This document shows positions 7,645 to 25,580 of a DNA stretch of 32,000 nucleotides, in pieces (the stretch's first letter is position 1; every line of letters begins with the position of its first letter). The position numbers and the translations under genes are program-made. The stretch lies in the NCBI GenBank assembly GCA_048886185.1, contig JBHLKY010000008.1:1-32000 (forward strand), given 5' to 3'. The notes under the pieces were generated by a model, which worked only from the letters and a program-made list of their open reading frames with translations, was not told the origin of the DNA and made no database searches. Source of the stretch: Candidatus Hermodarchaeota archaeon. GTDB lineage: Archaea; Asgardarchaeota; Heimdallarchaeia; Hodarchaeales; Hodarchaeaceae.

Positions 7645-8190
7645 ATGCCTACAAAACTGTTTGGTCGTGAAATTGAAAATCAAATCGCCTTTGTTGGATT
7701 AGCAAATGCAGGAAAAACCACATTAGTCAAAAGACTTAAAGGAGATGAAAATCTAGAGACCGTTCCAACAATGGGAATGAATATTGAGACCTTAAGAATT
7801 GGTAACATAGAAGTAATGGCAGCAGATTTAGGGGGCCAACCTACCTATCCTACTAGCTTGTGGGAACCATTTGTATCAAAAGCATCAGGTATTGTTTTTG
7901 TGTTTGATTCTGCAGACAGATCAAAGGTTGAGAATGCGGGAAAATGGTTGAAAAATGTTATTCAATGGGCACCGGAAGACTCTGCTTTCCTTTTTTTAGC
8001 AAATAAACAAGATTTATCAGAGGCAATGTCCCTTGAAAATATTATACACACGTTAGAACTGGAGAAAGAGATGTCTGCAAGGCCCAGAACCTTTGCAGTC
8101 TATCCTTGTTCAGCGTTAACGGGTGAGGGTGTCGATGAACCGTGGGATTGGATGAGTGATAGATTTCAGAGTAAAATTCCACGAAAGTAG
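7645..8190 (+). CDS. Arf-family-related small GTPase
   Basis: GLANAGKTT, PTMGMNIE, DLGGQ, FVFDSAD, NKQD, CSALTGEG. Confidence 0.92.
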   Translation: MPTKLFGREIENQIAFVGLANAGKTTLVKRLKGDENLETVPTMGMNIETLRIGNIEVMAADLGGQPTYPTSLWEPFVSKASGIVFVFDSADRSKVENAGKWLKNVIQWAPEDSAFLFLANKQDLSEAMSLENIIHTLELEKEMSARPRTFAVYPCSALTGEGVDEPWDWMSDRFQSKIPRK

Positions 8191-8199
8191 GTACCCTAA

Positions 8200-8763
8200 A
8201 TGAGTTTCCTTTCAAAGCTTCGCGCAAAATTTGCTAAAGAAAAATTAACAGTGAAGATTGCGTGGCTGGGTCTTGATCAGGCAGGAAAAACAACACTTGT
8301 CAAAAGGATAACTTCGGGGGAATTTGACAGCAGTACTTTCCGAACACTAGGTATGAATGTTGATGAATTCAGCTCTGGAAACGTTCGGTTTATCTCGTGG
8401 GACATTGGAGGCCAAGAAGCTTTCCGTGAATCATTATGGGAAAGCTATATGTCGGGTAGTATGGGTATCGTATATGTAGTTGATAGTGCTGACCGAGCAC
8501 GAATCAAGGAAGCTCAGACAGAATTATGGAAATATGTCTTAAACAATGATAAAGTAGAAAATATTCCAATTCTGGTTCTTGCTAACAAACAGGATCTTGA
8601 AAATGCCGCTTCAGCAGGTGAAGTTGCACGTGGACTTAACCTACACAAAGTTACAACTCATTCATATGCAATTGTTCCTACTTCAGCTAAAACTGGTTTT
8701 AACGTCGAAGAAGGACTGGAATGGCTTCGTCAAAGAGTAACTGAAAAGATTGAGCTCTTATAG
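8200..8763 (+). CDS. Arf/Arl-like small GTPase with N-terminal amphipathic helix
   Basis: MSFLSKLRAKF N-terminal helix, GLDQAGKTT, TLGMNV, WDIGGQ, VVDSAD, NKQD, GLNLH, SAKTG. Confidence 0.95.
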   Translation: MSFLSKLRAKFAKEKLTVKIAWLGLDQAGKTTLVKRITSGEFDSSTFRTLGMNVDEFSSGNVRFISWDIGGQEAFRESLWESYMSGSMGIVYVVDSADRARIKEAQTELWKYVLNNDKVENIPILVLANKQDLENAASAGEVARGLNLHKVTTHSYAIVPTSAKTGFNVEEGLEWLRQRVTEKIELL

Positions 8764-8809: not shown

Positions 8810-9604
8810 TTAAGATCTCTTTTTCATAACCATTTTCTCAGAGACCTCCCCAACTCGGTCACAGAGCATAAGGAATAGATCACGCATTTTCTCCAAATCT
8901 AAGTCTTCGTTAATCCGTGCATAAACACGAATTGATGGATCTTCAGCTGAATCCACTGAAATTCGAACAACTACTTTACGAACACTATGAAGTAATTTCA
9001 ATAGATTTCTATCACTAAGAAAGTATACTCCCGCTCGTTGAGAAGTTGCTTTAAGCAAGAAAAAGTCATCTAATTTTTTTACTCCAAGCTCTATCTCCTC
9101 AAGCTTAAATAAGAGCTCTTGATGCTTTTTTATTTGACCCTCTTCATGTTTGGGAAGAATTTGAATTTTCGTTGGAATTTTTCCTTTCTTGGAGTTCGCT
9201 TCTAAAGCAATGTAATCACTAACACCGGTAAACCAAGAAATAATAACAGAAAGCATAAGATGTCTTTCTTCTAAAGCAAAAATTACCCGAAAGTCTTTGA
9301 AGGATCTATCTACTGATTTCTTGTACTTTGGCAACAACATTCCGCCATTTGAACTCATCTCTTCCATAACAAGATCATCAAATTCTGTAAAGACTTCTAG
9401 CAAAGCCTCTCGTGCTAAATTCATTATTTTATGATTCTTTCTTCTCCCAGCCCATAAAAGATAAAAAGTAAAGAATAAAACGGTTCCTGGGCCTAAAAAT
9501 ATTATTATATAGTCAACCAAACCATATGCATTTTGGAGGTAAAACCGAGGTAAATATTCCAGAAGAAAGTCAAAAAATCCCGAGGACGGCATCATTGAAC
9601 TCAT
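8810..9604 (-). CDS. Single-pass membrane protein resembling CCDC47/DUF1682 (PAT complex subunit)
   Basis: TM helix followed by GRRKNHKI...REALLEVF and later EERHLMLSVIISWFTGVSDYI; these resemble remembered CCDC47 segments GKNKNSRL...RELLESNF and [20 protein letters not shown]. Confidence 0.6.
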   Translation of the reverse strand: MSSMMPSSGFFDFLLEYLPRFYLQNAYGLVDYIIIFLGPGTVLFFTFYLLWAGRRKNHKIMNLAREALLEVFTEFDDLVMEEMSSNGGMLLPKYKKSVDRSFKDFRVIFALEERHLMLSVIISWFTGVSDYIALEANSKKGKIPTKIQILPKHEEGQIKKHQELLFKLEEIELGVKKLDDFFLLKATSQRAGVYFLSDRNLLKLLHSVRKVVVRISVDSAEDPSIRVYARINEDLDLEKMRDLFLMLCDRVGEVSEKMVMKKRS

Positions 9605-9758
9605 GATCCAGAACTAGCTGAGAAATTTATTTGTTTTTCTTTGGATTCTTACCACTACAAATTCCCATCCAATATAAAGATGTTCTTTAAAGATACCTAA
9701 TAATCTCATTTAAAGCAGAAATTTTTCCCCAAGTGCATTTCCAATAAAGGATTTTTCC

Positions 9759-10358
9759 TTATTGCTTAATATAACTAGCAACTTCTTTGTACCTAAAAGG
9801 ATCTTTACCCTCTTTACCTACAACTTGGAAAAATTTGAACTGTGCAAGACCCTTCATATCAATCATAGCTGGATCAACCACAAGTGCAACAGAAAGATCA
9901 TTATGAAGCTGAAACGAATAAATATGGGTATTAATATCTGTTTGAGACAAAAATAATCCGTATCCAGGATGAGAATGCCACCATCCAAGGCAATGATTAT
10001 CATTTTCTAATATTTCTTCAAAAGCATCAAAATCATTATCAGAAAAAGAAACAGACACTTCATCACCTTCAGATACAAAAAGGATTTTAGATATTATCAG
10101 TTCATTGGTACGCTGCTGCTTTCCGCCTAGTAAGCCAATGGCCTCCCTAGGTTTGGATTTTATTGAATATTCAGTCATTTCACGTAGTAAATGTTTTGAG
10201 ATAGTTACTGATTGAACCTTAGCAACTAATGAGACGAGCTCGCCTTTGGATGTATCTGGTTTCTTAAGAATCACCTCGGATGCTGGTTTAAATATGACTT
10301 CTGTCTTTTTTTTGGAATTCTCTCCCTTTAAATCCTTTTGTTTCTCTTTTCCAGACAT
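9759..10358 (-). CDS. JAB1/MPN (JAMM) metalloprotease, Rpn11/CSN5/BRCC36-like Ubl isopeptidase
   Basis: REAIGLL...GWWHSHPGYGLFLSQTD = intact E...HxHx7Sx2D motif; VALVVDP. Confidence 0.93.
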   Translation of the reverse strand: MSGKEKQKDLKGENSKKKTEVIFKPASEVILKKPDTSKGELVSLVAKVQSVTISKHLLREMTEYSIKSKPREAIGLLGGKQQRTNELIISKILFVSEGDEVSVSFSDNDFDAFEEILENDNHCLGWWHSHPGYGLFLSQTDINTHIYSFQLHNDLSVALVVDPAMIDMKGLAQFKFFQVVGKEGKDPFRYKEVASYIKQ

Positions 10359-10390: not shown

Positions 10391-10933
10391 TCATTGGGCA
10401 TGTCTTTTAGTCCATTCCTCAGCGATTTCCCAAAATCGATCAAAATCCTTTTTCATAATTTCTCCAGCTTCAGGATTAAAAGGATCATTTGGATCAACAA
10501 GATATTCAGGAAAATCAGCATCCCCAGTTGCCCGATAAACATCTAGCATCATTTCGATATGTTCAAAAACACTAGGAAGAGTGATTGTTTCTTTCCATCC
10601 ACCTAGTTTTCCAAGATTATTCCAATTAACTAGACTAAGGCAGACATTAGAGCCCCATTTCCATTGTGTATTACCAGTTGCAATGTTAGGATGATAAATA
10701 GGAGTTAAAAAGTTAACAATAGGAGGTTTGAAGGGATACTCAGGAGGTAAGTCAACTGTGATCTCCCATCTACCCCCGTTATAAGGAGAATCCGCTTTTC
10801 CCTTAATTGTCGCCTTATAATGATGTAAGTCATTATTAACAATTAACCATTTAATATGGCTTGTTTTTGGTGGGTAAGTTTTCAACATTCGCTTGAACTC
10901 TTCTCTTAATCTTCTAGAGTGTAAATCCTGCAC
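10391..10933 (-). CDS. Ubiquitin-conjugating enzyme E2 (UBC fold, active)
   Basis: RRLREEF, SPYNGG, LPPEYPFKPP.V.FLTPIYHPNI, catalytic NVCL, DPFNPEAG...EWT. Confidence 0.95.
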   Translation of the reverse strand: MQDLHSRRLREEFKRMLKTYPPKTSHIKWLIVNNDLHHYKATIKGKADSPYNGGRWEITVDLPPEYPFKPPIVNFLTPIYHPNIATGNTQWKWGSNVCLSLVNWNNLGKLGGWKETITLPSVFEHIEMMLDVYRATGDADFPEYLVDPNDPFNPEAGEIMKKDFDRFWEIAEEWTKRHAQ

Positions 10934-11153: not shown

Positions 11154-11945
11154 ATGGAAGATATCCAAACTGATGTTTCTCAATGTAGTGGTTGTGGAGC
11201 TCCCCTTCCTATAAGACCAACATTCCAACATCCTGTAAAATGTGAATACTGTGATCTTTCAAATTACTTGAAAAGAGCTGCTGTTACACCGACAGAAGCG
11301 AAAATGATGGACGCAGAGGAGGAAGCTGAAAATTACTATCTTATTTACCAAGAATCACAAAAAATTCTAGAGAATTTTCCTGGAGAATTTGTTGGTGATG
11401 AAGTAAGTAAAATTAGAATAAAAATGCAGATTCATGAATTTGCTTTGCCTCTTTTACTCGTGTTGGACGATTTACCTGATCGACCCTATATAGATGGCCC
11501 TGCAAAACTTAGGGAAATTTTAGATTGTGAACTTAATGATTTAAAAAGTATGAAAACTTGGATCCCTGGCTCTAGTTCAGTTTTGGATGTTTTGGAAGAA
11601 ATATATCAAAGAGCAGATAAAAGGCTCCCTGAAGCTATGGGAGAACCGGTTGCTCTCTCTGATACCAGTTCTGTTCTTCAAGAAGAACGTGATCCTCTTA
11701 TACGTCAAATTCTCGCGAATTATGACGCATCAGCGGCTAAAAAAGAAATAACTGTAAGATTTTATGCTCAAGATGGTGAGGTAATCAATTTTATTATCAA
11801 AAGAAAGAAGAATTTACCCATAGGTCTTGAAAGTGATATTCTAACAAAATATCCACTAATCAGGGGTCCGTTAGAAGATTATGCAAAAGGGAGGATAGAT
11901 ATTCTAACTACACTTTCGGAAATAGAACGAATGTTTTACTCTTAA
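11154..11945 (+). CDS. Zn-ribbon protein with probable inactive UBC-fold (UEV/RWD/BRE-like) domain(s)
   Basis: CSGC...CEYC ribbon; middle region LLLVLDDLPDRPYID...LKSMKTWIPGSSSVLDVLEEI follows the UBC pattern but lacks HPN and a correctly placed Cys; GGTGA SD at 11140-11144. Confidence 0.55.
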   Translation: MEDIQTDVSQCSGCGAPLPIRPTFQHPVKCEYCDLSNYLKRAAVTPTEAKMMDAEEEAENYYLIYQESQKILENFPGEFVGDEVSKIRIKMQIHEFALPLLLVLDDLPDRPYIDGPAKLREILDCELNDLKSMKTWIPGSSSVLDVLEEIYQRADKRLPEAMGEPVALSDTSSVLQEERDPLIRQILANYDASAAKKEITVRFYAQDGEVINFIIKRKKNLPIGLESDILTKYPLIRGPLEDYAKGRIDILTTLSEIERMFYS

Positions 11946-11967
11946 GATAGAAATTTAGGTGAAAAAT

Positions 11968-12288
11968 ATGAGCAAAAAGGATGTTATTTGGGATTCTGAT
12001 AGAAGAAAACCCTCTACTGATGACAGCATTGAAAAGATGATTAAAGTGCGCTTTAAAGACCCACAACTTCCTCCAGATCAAAATATCCGTGAAAAATACA
12101 TTAATATTAATGGAACAGTCTTCCAGGCAATTACTGCGGCCCGTGATGCCTTTAATATTCCTGAAGTTGTGCCAATCGCTCTTTTATTCAAAGGAAGAAG
12201 AATGAACCCTTCAAATAATCTTTCCTCCTATGGAATTGAGCAAAATGCAATTCTAATGATCGTTCCAGACCAAATTAAGGGAGGATAA
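11968..12288 (+). CDS. Ubiquitin-like (beta-grasp) modifier with terminal di-Gly and UFM1-like features
   Basis: Ends ...IVPDQIKGG-stop; LLFKGRRMNPSNNLSSYGI resembles the ubiquitin core; KVRFK-DPQLP, AF.IP, NP and IVPD resemble UFM1; ATG at 11968 follows AGGTGA. Confidence 0.88.
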   Translation: MSKKDVIWDSDRRKPSTDDSIEKMIKVRFKDPQLPPDQNIREKYININGTVFQAITAARDAFNIPEVVPIALLFKGRRMNPSNNLSSYGIEQNAILMIVPDQIKGG

Positions 12289-12336: not shown

Positions 12337-13569
12337 ATGACACAAAATCTCCCTTTTTCTTCTAAATATGACAGGCAGGAACGACTAGACCTTTGGGATC
12401 AACAAATTATTGAGAAAAGTGTTATATTACTTGCGGGAGTCGGAGGAACTGGTAGTGAGCTAGCCAAAAACTTGGCTTTGTTAGGAGTTGGTACTTTAAT
12501 TCTTGTTGATGATGACACAATCGAGTTTTCAAATTTAAATCGCCAAATGTTATTCAAAGAGGAAGATGTGGAGCAAAAGAAAGCAGAGATTGCTAAAAAA
12601 AGGATTCAAGAACAATTTAATCCTGATATCATAATTGAGTCTTACTCAAAAAAATTGCAAAACATTCCCCAAAAGATTTATCAGAAGGTAGATATCATTG
12701 CTGGTTGTGTAGATAACTTTCTAGCACGACAATATCTCAATGCGATGGCAATTGAATTGAATATCCCTCTAGTGGATTCAGCTACGGATGGATATTTTGG
12801 TCAAATTCAGTATATAAAACCAAGGATAACGGCATGCCTGGCTTGTGAAACACCCCCGCCACCAGATGAAACTCGAGTTTTAACGGCCCCATGTACTTTG
12901 GTTGGTGTACCTCGTATGAGAGAACACTGTGCTTGGAAAGCTCTGTATGAATTTAACACAATCCACAAACGACAACCTGTAGAAGCATCACCAGAGGATA
13001 TTGCTGAGCTCACAAGAATCGCAAATCAGTTTACTAAAGAGTATAATTTTGGGCGTTTTGAAGAAAAAGAGCTGTCTCAGCTAGTTCTTTTTCATGTGCC
13101 TAGTCTGATCACTGTTAACGCAGTAACAAGTGGGATACAGTCTCAAGAGATAGTCAAATCTCTATTTCTTGAGAAAAAAACAATTATGAAAAAGTCAGAA
13201 CAGAAAACTTTAGAAAATCTGTTGAAAGAACATAGATTTCGCATTCCTCCATTTTCTATTTATTCAGCTTTAACAGGAACGATAAATACATTTGATCTGG
13301 TTCCTGATCCAGATTGTTTAGTATGTGGAAAGTCTAATTCTGTGATCAATGTAATAAAAACATTAACAGTGGATCCTAAATTATCTTTTGCATCTGTACT
13401 TAATCTTATTGGCCAAGAGAACAACAAAGATTACGCAGGATTCCGAGGAAATTTCCTTCTTCCTGAAGATGAAGTTATTCAAAATCTTCTTTCAGATGGA
13501 GACCGAATAACACTTAGTTCCATAACTGATAGCGAGGAAATCCGTGTACAAATCAAATACAAGAATTAG
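12337..13569 (+). CDS. Ubl-activating enzyme E1 of eukaryotic (UBA3/UBA2-like) architecture
   Basis: YDRQ, GVGGTG, DDDTIEFSNLNRQ, CVDN..AR, Zn pair CLAC/CLVC, catalytic-Cys domain APCTLVGVPRMREHC, VPSLITVNAV, C-terminal UFD-like region. Confidence 0.93.
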   Translation: MTQNLPFSSKYDRQERLDLWDQQIIEKSVILLAGVGGTGSELAKNLALLGVGTLILVDDDTIEFSNLNRQMLFKEEDVEQKKAEIAKKRIQEQFNPDIIIESYSKKLQNIPQKIYQKVDIIAGCVDNFLARQYLNAMAIELNIPLVDSATDGYFGQIQYIKPRITACLACETPPPPDETRVLTAPCTLVGVPRMREHCAWKALYEFNTIHKRQPVEASPEDIAELTRIANQFTKEYNFGRFEEKELSQLVLFHVPSLITVNAVTSGIQSQEIVKSLFLEKKTIMKKSEQKTLENLLKEHRFRIPPFSIYSALTGTINTFDLVPDPDCLVCGKSNSVINVIKTLTVDPKLSFASVLNLIGQENNKDYAGFRGNFLLPEDEVIQNLLSDGDRITLSSITDSEEIRVQIKYKN

Positions 13570-14033: not shown

Positions 14034-15797
14034 GTGAGACTAATGTTTGGGAGAAAGAGACAACAATGGTTCATGAAGGCTCAAACAGCTACTGAGCCCA
14101 TTGATTTGCGTGAGATAGCTCCAAAAGATATCCTAGAGGATGTTGCTTCATATTTAAGGATGAAAATTGGTTCTGAAGAACTTAATGGTTTTGTTAGTTT
14201 CGATGACGAGAAATTCATCCCTACTATATACCTCCAACAGTTACTGTCCCGTGAATTGGCAGAAAAAGGATTTATCGATATTTGTAGCATTATTGACACA
14301 ACTAATCTACCAGGTGAGTTATTAGAGGCTCAAATCAAGGTAAACGTTCAAGATATCGATGGTTTCTTTGATGTCATACATAGGAAATTTTTTTCTATAC
14401 AAGGAGCTAGGAATGAAATTAAACAGACTTTAGGTGCTACAACCGTATTAGACTTAAAATTTCTCCTGAATAAGCTTTTCTGGACAGAGGAACACCTAGA
14501 AGGCATTTTGGATCTTTTGGCTCAAAATAATCAATTTGTTGGGTATATTGATCCGATAAAACAACGAATATACAATTTTACTCCTTTAATCTTCTCCTCT
14601 CCATCTGACTTTCAAAGAAATATCAAGTATCTCAAACGTTTCATCAATACAAGCTTTCAAATGGAGTCACAAGTATCTTTAAAGCATATTAGCAAATTAA
14701 CAAGGCAATCCGAAGAAAAATGTCTTGAATTTCTGGAAAAAAATCGAGATAATATCAATTTTATATTTTCCACTAATTTTGATTACCTTTATCCATCAAT
14801 GGATATTATAAACCAGATTTTAAAGGATATATTCGTTTATCGTGATATTCCTATTAAATTCTGGCTTCAACGTCTTGATGTAGACAGAGGTGACCTTCTT
14901 AAAATAATTAAAATTCTAAATCAAAGTTTAAAGGGAACCTTATCATCAGAAGAGTTTATCGCTCCATCTTTGGAAGAATGGTTTGAAAATGGTATTGATA
15001 TAGAAAATTTAGCTACAGCACTGAATTTAGATCCATTAAACCTACTGAATCAAATTTATAAACTGGCAAAACTCCTTGGTTTAAGCATTATTGCTGGGGA
15101 AAGTTCTGATCCCTTTCTAGTTAAAGGAGTAAAACAATTTGAAATATTTTGCCAAGTAGACACCTCTTCTTACTCTAATCCTCATCTTTACTTCGAGTGT
15201 CAAAACTGTAGGCGAATCATGTGCTCAAATTGCCGTTCCGCAGGAAGTAAACATGAATGTCCGTTTTGTCGAAACATCTCTGCATTTATTATAGATCTAC
15301 CTAGACATTGTCTGTACTGTCACGTTAACTATACACATTCATATAACTTAATTGACACAGAGGAGTGCTATTTTTGCAAAAGAGGCCCTTTAAAAACAGG
15401 ATGGATCGAATTTGTACCTGATTCATCTGAAGCCTCTAAAATAACCCCAGTTTTATCAAAATTTCTCAAACAGACTGTTGAACCTGATATTCCGCTCCAA
15501 AAAATTATCTCTTTATTAAAAGGCTCAGATAGTGAAACGATTTCATTATTGGAAAGTTATATCCTACATGGAACCATACAAGGGAGGATAAGTATCCAAG
15601 ATATGTCCTTACAATTAACCACACAAGAAGAGAAATTTACTTGTGGTATTTGTGAACTATCCTTTGACGAATCTATGAGATATTCATGCTCTTCATGTAA
15701 CACAAAAGTATGTATGGGGTGTTTCAAGGAAATGAGCAGTGTGGGAATGATCTTTTGTCCTGAATGTGGCGAAAATCTTGAAAAAGAGATTCAATAG
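14034..15797 (+). CDS. Putative E3 ligase: tandem winged-helix (UFL1/PCI-like) repeats plus RING-like and C4C4 RING domains
   Basis: C-terminal C-x2-C-x11-C-x2-C-x4-C-x2-C-x11-C-x2-C (15642-15767); second RING-like C-x2-D-x12-C-x2-C-x4-C-x2-C-x8-C-x2-C (15150-15269); CLYC/CYFC ribbon; N-terminal repeats similar to remembered UFL1. Start may be ATG at 14043. Confidence 0.7.
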   Translation: [587 protein letters not shown]

Positions 15798-15823: not shown

Positions 15824-16714
15824 TTATACCTGTTGAGCCCTAAATTTTGCCAACTTCTTTGAATACTTATCCGTAAGTTCTTTGTACTTTTCCTCGTTAA
15901 GTTTACCACTTAGAAACATTTCATCAGCTTGTTCAAGCATTTGTTCATATTTCTTAATTTTCTCTGTAATATTGTCTAAATCCTTTCTTTCTTCAGCTAA
16001 TTCTTTTTGTTGGTCCAAAACTTGTTTCTCAATCTCATATGCTAACAAAGCCTGATATTCATCAGGAACCTTAAAACCCCCGATATCCAACCCAACCAAT
16101 TCCAAACCCCAACGAGATGTCTCAGGACCGAGTTCAGATCGAGTTTGAATTTCCAAACTTCTACGCTCTTTAAGCAGCTCTGGTACTGAATAGCGTGACA
16201 TTACATGTTTCACTGCAGCAATGATTGTCTGTTTAACCCAATTCTTTAATTCATCTCCAGAATAATATTGTTTATGGGAAACAATGTTCATAATGAAATT
16301 ACGAGGATTGACAACTCTCATACGAGAAATACCATAACAACCCACCATGATGTTGTCTGATGTATAAACTCCAGGTGTTCCCCATTTGATGATGAATTCA
16401 CGCTTTGTTACCCAGATAATCTCACTTCCAGGCCGTTTAGCACTTTTGTCAAGTTCATAGATCCCACTCCCTGCGACCCCTACTAATGATCCTGATTGCA
16501 ATAATATTGCATTTTCAGGGTCTTTAACAATGAATCCATCATATTTCCGAAAACTATCATGATCTTCAGATTTTAATCTACTAATTAATGAACTTTTTGT
16601 TTCTGGGCCAAAATTCGAACTCAGAATTACTTTTCCTTTAAATTTTTTTGTACCAATGTGCATAGCATCGCCTATTCGGCGAAATAATCCACCAAATTTC
16701 TCTACTTCAGCCAT
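15824..16714 (-). CDS. SPFH (band 7) domain protein with C-terminal coiled coil
   Basis: FIV..PENAILL..G, YG..RMRVVNP..F, WGLELVGLDIGGFKVP; charged helical tail; no TM segment seen; GGTGA SD. Confidence 0.75.
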   Translation of the reverse strand: MAEVEKFGGLFRRIGDAMHIGTKKFKGKVILSSNFGPETKSSLISRLKSEDHDSFRKYDGFIVKDPENAILLQSGSLVGVAGSGIYELDKSAKRPGSEIIWVTKREFIIKWGTPGVYTSDNIMVGCYGISRMRVVNPRNFIMNIVSHKQYYSGDELKNWVKQTIIAAVKHVMSRYSVPELLKERRSLEIQTRSELGPETSRWGLELVGLDIGGFKVPDEYQALLAYEIEKQVLDQQKELAEERKDLDNITEKIKKYEQMLEQADEMFLSGKLNEEKYKELTDKYSKKLAKFRAQQV

Positions 16715-16724
16715 TATTTTTCAC

Positions 16725-17726
16725 CTACCAGTCATTATCCCCATATAATCCTGGAAAATAATATTGATCACCTGAATCAAGAGATGAAACTTTTCGAGCA
16801 ATCTTTTGATCAACTAGACTCTCAAGAACTCTAACAACACGTTGTTGGTCCCATTTTGTACCCAAAATAACCTCTTCCAAGGTGACATATCCTTTATTAA
16901 CTGCTAAATCAAAAACCTTCCTCGCATCACTACCAAGAGTCACAGGAACAAATTCCACTATTTTAATTCCTGATCTTTTTGAGATTCCTTCAATTAGGGA
17001 TTGTTTTTGAAGATTTTTACAGGTTTTTTCAAGATCCTTTATTGAAAAATCGACATCAGGAACTTGAGTTTTCAAAGCTGTATAAAGGTTTGCAAGCGAA
17101 ATATATCCACCAGAACTTGCACGAAGATTCTTACCATGTTCAAGAACAAGGTTTTCAAGTGTTTCTTCAAATCTTCGCTTCCCAAATATTTTGGGCTTTT
17201 TTGTAGTATCTAAAGCAGTTATAGTTAATGCACGGCCTTCTTTTCGCAGTAATTCTCTTTCAAGCTGTTTTATTCGTGTATCGTATTTTTCTTGCAAATC
17301 CTTAATGCTTTCTGTTGAAACAGGAGCTCCATCAGCTAATTTCTTTTGAACTTGAATAACATCATGTAATTTTGTGACATTCTCACGAATCTCACGAATC
17401 TCCTCTCGAACATCCAGCCCCTCCTCACCAAAATCGAGATCCTCTGCTAATTTTAACGATTGATCTGCTATCCTCTCGCAAAGAATTGAAGCAAGTAGTT
17501 GTGCAACCCTTATTTCACCGCTCGATTTAAGATTAGATTTTGTTTGGTCAGGATGAAGAATGTAATCAGGAATAGTTTCTGTTTTATATCGAATCTCTTC
17601 GAATTTTGTGTAGATTTTTACTGTAATGTCAGCGACACTCCGAGCATTAGTGGAAACACTATTATTTAAACGTGTTAATGCAGTACTGGCCTTTAAAAAA
17701 TATTCTTTCATGTGTTCAAGCACCAA
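16725..17726 (-). CDS. ESCRT-II Vps22/Vps36 (EAP30)-like protein with long N-terminal helical/coiled-coil extension
   Basis: GGYISLANLY...FSIKDL...VPVTL...VFDLAVNKGYVTLEEV..GTKWDQQRVVRVLESLV...YYFPGL matches the SNF8/Vps22 tandem winged helices. Confidence 0.85.
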   Translation of the reverse strand: MVLEHMKEYFLKASTALTRLNNSVSTNARSVADITVKIYTKFEEIRYKTETIPDYILHPDQTKSNLKSSGEIRVAQLLASILCERIADQSLKLAEDLDFGEEGLDVREEIREIRENVTKLHDVIQVQKKLADGAPVSTESIKDLQEKYDTRIKQLERELLRKEGRALTITALDTTKKPKIFGKRRFEETLENLVLEHGKNLRASSGGYISLANLYTALKTQVPDVDFSIKDLEKTCKNLQKQSLIEGISKRSGIKIVEFVPVTLGSDARKVFDLAVNKGYVTLEEVILGTKWDQQRVVRVLESLVDQKIARKVSSLDSGDQYYFPGLYGDNDW

Positions 17727-22131: not shown

Positions 22132-22626
22132 GTGATAGATCCCAGAAGATTTGATACCGTTCTTAGTAAAATCATCAAAAGCGAACCGGGTATTAAGAAG
22201 GTCATACTTGTCGATCGAACTGGTCTCACTATTGCCCATGTTTCTAAATTCAGCTATGTTAGTATTGATGTAGATGGAATTGGAGCCATTGCATCAGCTG
22301 TTTTCATGGCATCGGCTGAACAAGGATTAAATCTGACAATTGGAGGCCTAGATATTGTTACTTCAGAATTTGATACTGGGAAGATCTTTGCAAGCACATG
22401 TGGGCGTGGTATTCTGACTATCATTTCAGATGCCGATGTGAACATTGGCATGATTAGGCTATTAATGAGAAAAGCCAATGAAGAGCTCAGCAGTATTTTG
22501 GATGAATTTTTAGCGGGAAAACCAACACGATCAATAGGAGGGGTGGCTTCAGCGGCTCCTGAGGTTCGTACAAGCCTAGAAAAGGATGAATTAGAAGCAG
22601 CGTTACGTGAACTTGAAAAGTTTTAA
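22132..22626 (+). CDS. Roadblock/LC7 (MglB-like) protein with C-terminal tail
   Basis: VILVDRTGLTIA, IGAIASAVF, GILTIISD..VNIGMIRL; directly upstream of the MglA-like GTPase. Confidence 0.88.
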   Translation: MIDPRRFDTVLSKIIKSEPGIKKVILVDRTGLTIAHVSKFSYVSIDVDGIGAIASAVFMASAEQGLNLTIGGLDIVTSEFDTGKIFASTCGRGILTIISDADVNIGMIRLLMRKANEELSSILDEFLAGKPTRSIGGVASAAPEVRTSLEKDELEAALRELEKF

Positions 22627-22673
22627 TTAAATCTAAGAATCCCGACTCCTGACCTGCGAAGGAGACTTATTAC

Positions 22674-23261
22674 TTGAGAAAGGACGCGGAAGGTCGTCAC
22701 CGATTCAAAATAGTTTTCTACGGTCCATCTCTAGGAGGAAAAACGTCCACTCTTGCCTGGTTATACAATAAAGTGGATGGACTGGAAAAAGGAAAATTCA
22801 CACAATTAGCAGATCCAACAGGACGGACACTATTCTTTGATTTTGTACCAATGCAGGCAACTACTGGTGTTGTGTTTGACGTATATACTACTGCTGGACA
22901 AGAACGTCATAAACACCAGCGGAAAATAGTAATTCAAGGAGTTGATGGGCTCATTTTTGTAGTTGATTCAAGTGCATCACAATTTCAGGAGAATATTGAA
23001 TCACTTAATGAGTTACAGATGCATTTAGGCGATCAACTGGGTACAAGCATCCCTTTGGTTATTACACTTAACAAACGAGATGTTCAAGATGCTTTACCTA
23101 GATCAGAGTTGATTCAAAGGTTGAAAATCCAAGATTATCCTATCTATGAAACTGTTGCAACCACAGGTCTTGGAGTGAAGCGCGCGTTTCAATCTCTGGC
23201 TCGTGAAATATTAATGATCCAACTTTACGGGACAAAAGAGTCTCAAATTACCAGAACTTAG
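22674..23261 (+). CDS. MglA-like small GTPase
   Basis: KIVFYGPSLGGKTS, RTLFFDF.P, YTTAGQ (Asp-less G3), GVDGLIFVVDS, NKRD, close to Myxococcus MglA motifs. Confidence 0.92.
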   Translation: MRKDAEGRHRFKIVFYGPSLGGKTSTLAWLYNKVDGLEKGKFTQLADPTGRTLFFDFVPMQATTGVVFDVYTTAGQERHKHQRKIVIQGVDGLIFVVDSSASQFQENIESLNELQMHLGDQLGTSIPLVITLNKRDVQDALPRSELIQRLKIQDYPIYETVATTGLGVKRAFQSLAREILMIQLYGTKESQITRT

Positions 23262-24302: not shown

Positions 24303-25580
24303 TTAAAGCTCATACAGTCTTTCTTTCATTTCTTGTGCTTTTTGACGATAGAATTCATGGAATTGATATTCATTTATCACTTGTGCTTTTTCAGCTGCAA
24401 ATTCAAAGTGCATCAATGCCTTCTCATAGCTCCTTTGGAGTGCTTCGATCTCCCCTAATAATCCATGGGCTAATACTAGCCCTTTTAATTCCTCAAGGGC
24501 CTCAAAGTGTTGGATAGCTTCTTCAAGATAATATGAGGCTTGAGCAGCACTAGCACTATCCCCTTGCTTTACATATTGGCCTAAAATTTTAGCCATATTT
24601 ACCTGTGAAACTGCTAGAGAATAACGATCTTGTCGAGACTCAGCTAGAGAACGAGATTTATCAAAATTCTTCATAGCTTCGTCAAATTTTCCCACACGAA
24701 AGTAACATTCGCCAATATTACAATAAGCATTAACAACGGCTCTATGAATGTTCGCTCTTTTTGCACGTTCAAGTGCTTGTTCAAATTTCGTGATGGCCTC
24801 TTCATAAAGACTATTTTCATATAAGAGAATGCCCTCAGAAGAGAAAATATTCTCCTCTAGCATTGGGTCTCCCAATTGGCTTGTGAACTCCCATAGTGCT
24901 TCCAATCGATTCTTAGTAAAATCATAATTCATGGAATCAAGCGATAATTCTGATTGGGCAAATACAGCATGAAATTTACCATTTATATCTGATAAAATGT
25001 CGAATATCTTGTAAGCTTTAGTAAAATTCTCCATAGCTTTCCTTGGATCTGTTTTCATAATTTTTCTACCTTGTTCTATTAAAAGCCATGGTTCCTCTCC
25101 AATTATATCGCTAATAGTTTTCCATTCTTTTTTAGGTTTAGCTGAAATACTAATTTTGCTTTTCCATAAATCAGGCTTGTCAAACAAATCAGAAACTAGG
25201 TTTAAAAGAAGATTACTATCGCCACCAGCTTTTTCTGACAAGCTTTTGGGACCCACTCCACGAAGTCTTAAATCACCTTCAGAAAACTCAAAAAGGACTC
25301 CCAAAGGCACACTTCTTGTTTGAGATTCTCCCCACTTCCTACCTACAACAACAAAGAAATTGGTTGGTGGAAATAACACTTCATCTCGTGTAACTGATTT
25401 TAATCCTTGAATCCAAGTATAATCAGTTTTAAAAAAACTGGCTATCAATTCCCCTTTAAATTCAGGATCCCAATCGACTAAGGTTGCTGCATCAAATAGC
25501 TCGATTTCTTCATCGTGAGGACCTAACGCAAAGCTAACCTTCCAACTAACCATAACCAGCTTCACCCTTATATTTGACAA
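24303..25580 (-). CDS. TPR-repeat protein with unrecognised N-terminal beta-rich domain
   Basis: Repeats such as EEAITKFEQALERA and YCNIGECYFRVGKFDEAMKNFDKS; start may be ATG at 25553. Confidence 0.8.
   Translation of the reverse strand: MSNIRVKLVMVSWKVSFALGPHDEEIELFDAATLVDWDPEFKGELIASFFKTDYTWIQGLKSVTRDEVLFPPTNFFVVVGRKWGESQTRSVPLGVLFEFSEGDLRLRGVGPKSLSEKAGGDSNLLLNLVSDLFDKPDLWKSKISISAKPKKEWKTISDIIGEEPWLLIEQGRKIMKTDPRKAMENFTKAYKIFDILSDINGKFHAVFAQSELSLDSMNYDFTKNRLEALWEFTSQLGDPMLEENIFSSEGILLYENSLYEEAITKFEQALERAKRANIHRAVVNAYCNIGECYFRVGKFDEAMKNFDKSRSLAESRQDRYSLAVSQVNMAKILGQYVKQGDSASAAQASYYLEEAIQHFEALEELKGLVLAHGLLGEIEALQRSYEKALMHFEFAAEKAQVINEYQFHEFYRQKAQEMKERLYEL

Follow-up and report, generated by a model that had tools for sequence, protein, structure and literature searches.

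The 32,000 nucleotides (nt) analysed here (the window) are positions 1 to 32,000 of contig JBHLKY010000008.1, from the Candidatus Hermodarchaeota archaeon assembly GCA_048886185.1. On the reverse strand, behind genes for a ubiquitin-conjugating E2 enzyme and a JAMM isopeptidase, the window carries a gene for a membrane protein of 264 amino acids (aa), P0001. The core of this protein is homologous to eukaryotic CCDC47 (calumin), a subunit of the PAT complex and multipass translocon of the endoplasmic reticulum (ER). The gene (CCDC47L) is referred to as A-type and tail-less, to separate it from a second, B-type copy in the same genome. The features are collected in Table 1.

Judged by its conservation, the open reading frame at 8810-9604 is a real gene. 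Homologues of P0001 number 66 at E <= 1e-3, and the 38 that were aligned with it share 47-79% identity with P0001, leaving 57 invariant columns over all 39 sequences. The source labels of these close homologues read Hodarchaeales, Heimdallarchaeota or Promethearchaeota. An exhaustive phmmer search of 1.8 billion representatives added about 16 more distant relatives (26-33% identity), of which the named ones come from metagenome-assembled genomes of Hodarchaeales, Heimdall-, Hermod- and Thorarchaeota; only 18 relatives in total reached E <= 0.001, and every named one is from Asgard archaea. The source genome, which is 96% complete, is that of a Hodarchaeales-type Asgard archaeon, and the whole window is typical of the Heimdall group.

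From its sequence, P0001 is predicted to be a single-pass membrane protein with its amino terminus outside and its carboxy-terminal domain in the cytosol. The 32 residues that precede the transmembrane helix contain one Lys/Arg and three Asp/Glu, while the 15 residues that follow it contain five Lys/Arg; by the positive-inside rule, an N-out/C-in orientation is therefore predicted. In an AlphaFold2 (AF2) model, the N-terminal segment forms an amphipathic helix (aa 7-21) ahead of an invariant F-L-Q (aa 22-24), and the transmembrane helix is part of a long helix (29-71) that aligns to the transmembrane helix of CCDC47 from residue 135 onward. The sequence AGRRKNHKI comes directly after the membrane. 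Within it, G53 and N57 are invariant or near-invariant in all Asgard clades. Together with R114 and D130, they are the only near-universal residues of the family in these clades, and the four pair with G, N, R and D of human CCDC47. The cytosolic domain of 213 aa is basic (isoelectric point 9.2), and the protein ends a few residues past the last helix of this domain with neither latch helices nor a tail. The acidic, calcium-binding lumenal domain of CCDC47 and its signal peptide are not present either, as just 32 aa precede the transmembrane helix and occupy the place of that large domain.

An earlier sequence-only reading of the window had described one transmembrane helix followed by G-RRKN-HKI and a soluble domain of about 200 aa. 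It had placed the gene downstream of, and co-oriented with, those for the E2 and JAMM proteins across a 154-nt gap, and had remarked on the lack of the acidic lumenal region and of the long charged C-terminal helix. Each of these descriptions was borne out: the helix spans aa 33-51, the gap is exactly 9605-9758, and the structural alignment to CCDC47 stops at residue 404 of 483.

Table 1. Features of the CCDC47-like gene, its neighbours and its paralogue. Positions refer to the window, except for the paralogue, which is located elsewhere in the same genome.
Feature	Position	Strand	Length	Evidence or remark
CCDC47-like gene (A-type, tail-less; protein P0001)	8810-9604	(-)	264 aa	Open reading frame and translation, 66 conserved homologues, CCDC47 homology
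aa 1-32, short N-terminal segment of net acidic charge, predicted extracytoplasmic	9509-9604	(-)		Charge count, AF2 secondary structure, invariant columns
aa 33-51, sole transmembrane helix	9452-9508	(-)		Best Kyte-Doolittle 19-mer, 2.0
aa 53-57, juxtamembrane motif G-R-R-K-N	9434-9448	(-)		Conserved over Asgard clades, aligns to human CCDC47 G-K-N-K-N
aa 52-264, predicted cytosolic alpha/beta globular domain, CCDC47/TtfA fold	8813-9451	(-)		VIA-align, hhalign over aa 52-257, HMMER alignment
R114	9263-9265	(-)		Invariant in family, aligned to human CCDC47 R
D130	9215-9217	(-)		Invariant in family, aligned to human CCDC47 D
JAMM-CCDC47L spacer	9605-9758	(-)	154 nt	AT-rich, TATA-like strings
JAMM/MPN+ isopeptidase, directly upstream of the CCDC47-like gene	9759-10358	(-)		PF01398 E 3.8e-12; intact E...HSHP...S..D
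Ubiquitin-conjugating E2, first of the co-oriented trio	10391-10933	(-)		HPN and Cys98; PF00179 E 2.9e-24, invariant columns
Arf-family small GTPase, convergent with the CCDC47-like gene	8200-8763	(+)		Pfam; 46-nt tail-to-tail gap
Second Arf-family small GTPase	7645-8190			
B-type paralogue	G000:C5:51992-52741 (L001:892-1773)	(-)	274 aa (start as in databases)	

Homology to the core of CCDC47

P0001 shares a homologous core with eukaryotic CCDC47 (PF07946, formerly DUF1682), made up of the transmembrane helix, the G-x-x-K-N motif and the domain of about 210 aa. This conclusion is drawn because three independent lines of evidence agree, namely Pfam matches with a profile-profile comparison, a reverse search of Protein Data Bank (PDB) sequences, and structure.

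The PF07946 profile has a length of 326 positions and a curated cut-off of 27.7 bits. Sub-threshold matches to it were obtained for 22 of the 39 close homologues, and these are collinear, pairing protein residues 39-253 with profile positions 11-252, where the Pfam alignments of the P0001 clade end. The highest score among them (25.5 bits, E 8.8e-6) belongs to P0024, for which the bacterial family DUF3137 scores 13.1 bits. The distant relatives P0070 and P0074 also match PF07946 below the cut-off and collinearly, and for one relative the protein collection already lists a precomputed PF07946 assignment. In other clades, Asgard members exceed the cut-off (L016, 35.0 bits; L017, 32.6 bits; L020, 31.8 bits), with the L016 match spanning profile positions 8-314; a further member, L019, lies just under it at 27.2 bits. 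A bridge between the clades is provided by hhalign, in which a profile of the P0001 clade alone (A1) was matched to a profile built from the other Asgard clades only (A7) with a probability of 98.9% and an E value of 1.6e-17 over 202 columns. Since this match starts after the transmembrane helix, it is not driven by hydrophobicity.

In the reverse direction, a broad profile of 30 Asgard family members (A3) was run against 177,635 PDB sequences. The top match was to chains 6w6l_7 and 7tm3_4 (E 0.0025), the human and rabbit proteins that their depositors named coiled-coil domain-containing protein 47. The HMMER alignment pairs the consensus segments yilGrkkNkkl and LeeRhlllsliiskfrkrkDfllie with segments of CCDC47, which places the Asgard G-x-K-N opposite human GKNKN and the R...D pair opposite KRQDLL...SDQV. 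Only A3 reached CCDC47 in the PDB; single-protein searches of the same kind with P0024, P0087 and the L016 protein did not return it, and a word-indexed search with another profile, A2, at E <= 10 returned Asgard proteins only and no eukaryotic CCDC47. The identity between P0001 and CCDC47 is approximately 10%.

The AF2 model of P0001 has a pLDDT of 72 and a pTM of 0.67, with aa 115-127 poorly defined. The best Foldseek matches of the model were three CCDC47 chains and the mycobacterial protein TtfA at E values from 3.7e-6 to 1.4e-4 (3.7e-6, 4.7e-6 and 1.4e-4 among them), with a probability of 1.00 for CCDC47. VIA-align superimposed the model on 7tm3_4 with a Z score of 15.8 (214 aa, RMSD 3.8, CCDC47 residues 135-404), on 9i78_4 with a Z score of 14.2 and on 6w6l_7 with a Z score of 11.9. 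These chains come from three independent cryo-EM entries (7TM3, 9I78 and 6W6L). TtfA (6t84) was the fourth PDB match with a Z score of 11.7 over 160 aa, while no unrelated fold scored above 7.0. The CCDC47 match is the only one that covers the transmembrane helix, and the Z score to CCDC47 is above that to TtfA. As modelled, the domain of P0001 has the alpha/beta fold of CCDC47.

The sequence-only reading had taken the gene for an archaeal homologue of CCDC47, and the PF07946 signal, the profile bridge and the fold match support that identification. HMMER with the A3 profile recovered both of the motif matches to human CCDC47 that it had made by eye. Lack of a DUF1682 profile match and an unrelated predicted fold had been set beforehand as the refuting conditions, and neither refuted the identification. 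The predicted fold matches both the transmembrane helix and the cytosolic domain in the three cryo-EM structures. The expected DUF1682 profile match was found only in part; it is sub-threshold in close homologues and above the cut-off in distant Asgard members, but is not obtained with P0001 alone.

P0001 may be considered in terms of what it shares with CCDC47 and what it lacks. Like CCDC47, it has a single transmembrane helix, a basic cytosolic C-terminal domain, a juxtamembrane G-x-x-K-N, an invariant R and D, and a predicted alpha/beta fold (Z scores of 12-16, and 18.4 for the paralogue). Unlike CCDC47, it has no signal peptide, acidic lumenal domain, connecting helix, latch helices or charged coiled coil; its genome yielded no detectable Asterix or eL6, and its gene sits after an E2-JAMM pair.

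The same fold also occurs in bacteria. An Atlas shape search returned bacterial clusters (unnamed ones from Chloroflexota and Acidobacteriota, DUF3137 and TtfA) at TM scores of 0.53-0.69, with CCDC47 at 0.66. The unnamed clusters of proteins of about 230 aa, which are mostly labelled as bacterial, are as near to P0001 in shape as CCDC47 is (0.60-0.69) and are closer than CCDC47 in language-model features (0.94-0.96). TtfA (6T84; PF28092) and DUF3137 (PF11335) resemble P0001 in having an N-terminal membrane anchor and a domain of the same fold (Z score 11.7; Atlas TM scores of 0.53-0.58). They differ from it in being bacterial, in serving lipid export rather than protein biogenesis and in giving no consistent sequence signal; DUF3137 matches are weak (E >= 0.02) and occur in three of the 39 homologues. 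TtfA is reported to be in a complex with the multipass transporter MmpL3 (PMC6593404). The core of CCDC47 is thus a member of an old class of membrane-anchored domains, in which at least CCDC47 and TtfA work with multipass membrane proteins. A similar alpha/beta arrangement is seen in class I type III secretion chaperones (Spa15, ExsC, SycE and VecA; Z scores of 6-7), a fold that holds extended polypeptides. These chaperones differ in being soluble dimers of about 130 aa with no sequence relation, and their Z scores are in the range of a common arrangement.

Clades, tails and gene neighbourhood

The family profile matched 70 of the 201 genomes that were sampled from the phylum. The family is present in nearly all genomes of the class to which the window belongs and is patchy elsewhere, with three large families giving 1 of 43, 0 of 40 and 0 of 19 genomes. 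Scores at the level of the A-type (E ~1e-100) are restricted to the window's own GTDB genus and family. In an unrooted maximum-likelihood tree, the A-type and B-type form sister clades (support 93/93). A third clade, with the highest Pfam scores, comprises copies from other Heimdallarchaeia families whose Lys/Glu-rich tails of about 60 aa resemble the coiled coil of CCDC47; three of them (L016, L017 and L025) are 299-308 aa in length. The fourth clade consists of short forms from other classes.

The Asgard family presents three tail states: tail-less, short-tailed and Lys/Glu-tailed. The tailed homologues belong to the family of P0001 by profile (E 1e-22 to 1e-82), and they have the transmembrane helix, motif and domain in common with the A-type. 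A C-terminal extension is kept in the B-type and in the Lys/Glu-tailed Heimdallarchaeia copies, while the A-type has neither tail. The PF07946 profile extends over the Lys/Glu-rich tails as far as its position 314. The genome of the window encodes both an A-type and a B-type copy. The B-type extension is strongly conserved and basic (...KKGYY.KQR..R[IV]..D.T.EKDK..RY.I), and the B-type model superimposes better on CCDC47 than the A-type model does, with a Z score of 18.4 to two chains and an alignment that reaches residue 413.

Some of these relatives have distinctive neighbours. Directly upstream of the B-type gene, and co-directional with it, is a gene for a 365-aa protein with a weak DENN-domain match (E 0.045). 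At L016 (8380-9967), L017 and L025, the gene just upstream of the Lys/Glu-tailed copy, in the same orientation, encodes a Ras/Rab-like GTPase. Two loci, L033:2275-4165 and L034 (P0084/P0070), hold the nearest outgroup of the A-type clade; there the CCDC47-like gene lies 3' of genes for a zf-AN1 protein and an unnamed 177-aa protein on the same strand, with a GrpE-DnaK-DnaJ chaperone operon 2-2.4 kb downstream. At two loci of mini-form copies, no long open reading frame lies close by and no CstA/Get3 module was seen.

In the window's own lineage, the gene order is conserved. In each of the 14 genus-level genomes examined, and in metagenomic relatives with as little as 49% identity, a gene termed ZnR263 diverges from E2-JAMM-CCDC47L, which converges on Arf-Arf-ThrRS-HPRT; the convergent Arf GTPase keeps its position in all 14. 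The 154-nt spacer between JAMM and CCDC47L in the window is the longest seen; relatives have -35 to 92 nt, a spacing that would permit co-transcription. The conserved block consists of 12 genes, including ThrRS, HPRT, CGI-121 and THUMP. All 12 are equally conserved, and thus the E2-JAMM-CCDC47L order reflects descent in one lineage. In sister families, the E2-JAMM pair is present without a CCDC47-like gene downstream, and in two closed genomes JAMM lies more than 1.5 Mb from the CCDC47 homologue. The E2-JAMM-CCDC47L linkage is confined to one genus-level lineage, and the other clades of the family occupy variable and unrelated gene contexts.

A ubiquitin-like (Ub-like) system is encoded next to the block. 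A Ub-like protein with a mature C-terminal Gly-Gly (11959-12288, (+)) is preceded by a candidate E3-like partner, a conserved protein of 263 aa whose N-terminal part holds a Cys-rich zinc ribbon (11154-11945, (+)), and is followed by a ThiF-type E1 of 410 aa (12337-13569, (+)). Beside the E1 gene, a 587-aa protein (14034-15797, (+)) is conserved that carries a C-terminal zinc finger (C1/ZZ) and gives weak winged-helix matches to PCI and E3_UFM1_ligase (18.7 bits). In the Atlas shape search it falls near Asgard DDRGK/UFL1/PCI proteins and eukaryotic UFL1, with low TM scores (0.29-0.34). It was not accepted as a firm UFL1, as its matches of 16-19 bits fall under the cut-off and the best match in the genome is a 920-aa gene (G000:C27:36293-36799). 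A search of the genome for DDRGK (PF09756) gave nothing above noise. Directly beside the Ub-like genes are those for SPFH/Band-7 and EAP30/Vps36-family proteins (15824-17726, (-)), the latter belonging to ESCRT-II of the endosomal sorting complexes required for transport (ESCRT). Clustering of ubiquitin and ESCRT genes has been described for Asgard archaea, and the position of the SPFH and ESCRT-II genes fits this pattern.

Further along, a small Ras/Arf-like GTPase comes after a Roadblock/LC7 protein (22132-23261, (+)), an arrangement that recalls Ragulator-Rag or MglB-MglA modules. The window also encodes a TPR/RPN7-like protein (24303-25580), NMD3 and aIF2-alpha. A functional link between CCDC47L and the flanking Arf-like GTPases was considered and set aside. 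The window of 32 kb holds four small-GTPase genes and the association is missing in other clades, save for the one Heimdallarchaeia family with a Ras/Rab-like gene upstream, so the Arf genes are treated as neighbourhood.

Competing explanations and the proposed role

The overall best explanation, held to be moderately probable, is that P0001 is a true homologue of the CCDC47 core and a membrane-anchored cytosolic scaffold for multipass membrane proteins. A role in membrane-protein biogenesis is suggested by analogy with CCDC47. In CCDC47, a transmembrane helix is joined to a globular cytosolic domain in contact with eL6 and rRNA H25, and to a conserved basic coiled coil, which is wedged in between Sec61 and the ribosome and has its end at the mouth of the tunnel (PMC7505659). 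The two halves of Sec61 are both braced by the latch helices of CCDC47, and strict conservation of the PAT complex across eukaryotes has been described (PMC12572126).

Several observations weigh against the scaffold explanation. The parts of CCDC47 with a known mechanism (the latch helices, the C-terminus at the tunnel mouth and the lumenal domain) are absent from P0001. With no latch helices, P0001 has no means of bracing SecY or of extending to the ribosome exit tunnel as CCDC47 does, and homology to CCDC47 gives no translocon role yet because the part that touches Sec61 and the ribosome tunnel is the part that P0001 is missing. Neither eL6 (PF01159) nor TMEM147 (PF09767) was detected in the 96%-complete genome. 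No Asterix-like protein (WDR83OS, PF03669), the obligate partner in the PAT complex for which the sequence-only reading had proposed to look, emerged from the genome; the best match was a 45-aa frame at the noise level (E 0.36), with similar noise in four of 14 control genomes, although a small divergent membrane protein could escape such a search. Neither secY nor ribosomal genes were ever found in the neighbourhoods of the family loci that were examined. At the level of sequence, a Pfam search with P0001 alone identified no family at E <= 1, and the narrower profiles A1 and A2 did not retrieve CCDC47 from the PDB sequences. In favor of the scaffold explanation, the genome contains a gene for an EMC3/TMCO1-type insertase (61.7 bits).

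The occurrence of the same fold in bacteria raises the question of whether P0001 is specifically related to CCDC47. It could instead be a generic, pan-prokaryotic membrane-anchored domain of the TtfA/DUF3137 kind that serves as a transporter accessory, with CCDC47 as a eukaryotic offshoot and no specific relation to translocation. The extent of the TtfA superposition, the bacterial Atlas clusters that score alongside CCDC47, the mostly bacterial nature of the nearest clusters by features and the weak DUF3137 matches are all consistent with this view. It is nevertheless considered unlikely, as CCDC47 is the sole consistent family in sequence searches in both directions, exemplified by the two scores of P0024. 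In addition, CCDC47 superimposes with the higher Z scores and alone accounts for the transmembrane helix, the named phmmer relatives are all Asgard, and no transporter gene adjoins the CCDC47-like gene. Judged by these sequence searches, the Asgard family is tied specifically to CCDC47. A resemblance that arose by chance, or a non-functional reading frame, is scarcely credible. The lack of a Pfam family for P0001 alone and the moderate confidence of the AF2 model, in which aa 115-127 fall below a pLDDT of 50, might be cited in its favor, but it is already contradicted by the 57 invariant columns in 39 homologues and by homology that is backed from three independent directions.

A different explanation starts from the neighbors of the gene. 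The A-type protein could be a membrane adaptor of the adjacent Ub-like system, co-transcribed with E2 and JAMM, that keeps conjugation or deconjugation at the membrane. It might, for instance, serve in marking or rescuing membrane proteins, or ribosomes attached to the membrane, that are destined for the adjacent ESCRT machinery. The trio is co-oriented in all 14 genus-level genomes and in the metagenomic relatives, and the A-type exists solely where this arrangement exists. Encoded next to the block are the E1, the Ub-like protein with its terminal GG, the winged-helix protein that weakly matches UFL1, and the SPFH and ESCRT-II proteins. An origin in Asgard archaea is reported for UFL1 and DDRGK1, two proteins that work on ribosomes bound to the ER (PMC10183829). 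Against this, descent of the 12-gene block in one lineage explains the gene order, the E2-JAMM pair of sister families has no CCDC47-like gene downstream and lies more than 1.5 Mb from the homologue in closed genomes, and no other clade of the family is near ubiquitin genes. The spacer of the window, with its TATA-like strings, is also compatible with a promoter of its own, and the 587-aa protein is just the second-best, sub-threshold UFL1 match in the genome. The adaptor explanation is thus regarded as rather unlikely, and functional coupling of CCDC47L to the Ub-like system is possible, with the balance against it.

Returning to the scaffold explanation, P0001 would most likely be a membrane-anchored cytosolic scaffold akin to CCDC47 and to TtfA with MmpL3. 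It may hold or organize multipass membrane proteins, or the insertion machinery (SecYE-beta and an Oxa1-type insertase, both encoded in this genome, the insertase at G000:C3:121830-122342), at the inner face of the membrane, with the basic globular domain as a putative docking surface. Any SecY-bracing or tunnel activity present in the organism would fall to the tailed B-type paralogue, which would make the A-type a sub-functionalized copy. A more elaborate proposal combines both themes. The Asgard family would represent a proto-PAT or multipass-translocon scaffold, and in this Hodarchaeales lineage its duplicated, tail-less copy would be wired into the Ub-like E2-JAMM operon beside ESCRT genes as a primitive membrane-anchored quality-control station, acting on membrane proteins or on ribosomes attached to the membrane. 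This proposal is improbable; if true, the station would be a forerunner of surveillance at the translocon of the type seen in ER-associated degradation or UFMylation.

In the literature searched, no paper was found that combines CCDC47 or the multipass translocon with Asgard archaea, and none mentions an archaeal CCDC47; where papers name both CCDC47 and archaea, the archaeal link is to Oxa1 or TRAP. Papers treat CCDC47 as confined to eukaryotes. The main catalogue of eukaryotic-signature proteins in Asgard archaea (Eme et al. 2023) does not list it either, as far as its supplements were searched. The fold link between CCDC47 and TtfA/DUF3137 was likewise found in no paper. New to this study are the two-paralogue picture, the clades with three tail states, the profile-profile bridge and the E2-JAMM linkage limited to one lineage.

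The ER-translocon parts already counted as predating eukaryotes include subunits of the oligosaccharyltransferase (OST), TRAP and the Oxa1-type insertase. To these, the Asgard CCDC47 family adds a component of the multipass machinery. Given the link in fold to bacterial TtfA and DUF3137, membrane-anchored helpers of multipass proteins may form a general class. With their tail-less, short-tailed and Lys/Glu-tailed forms, the Asgard proteins offer a natural dissection of CCDC47, which makes it testable whether the core or the latch is ancestral and what the core does by itself.

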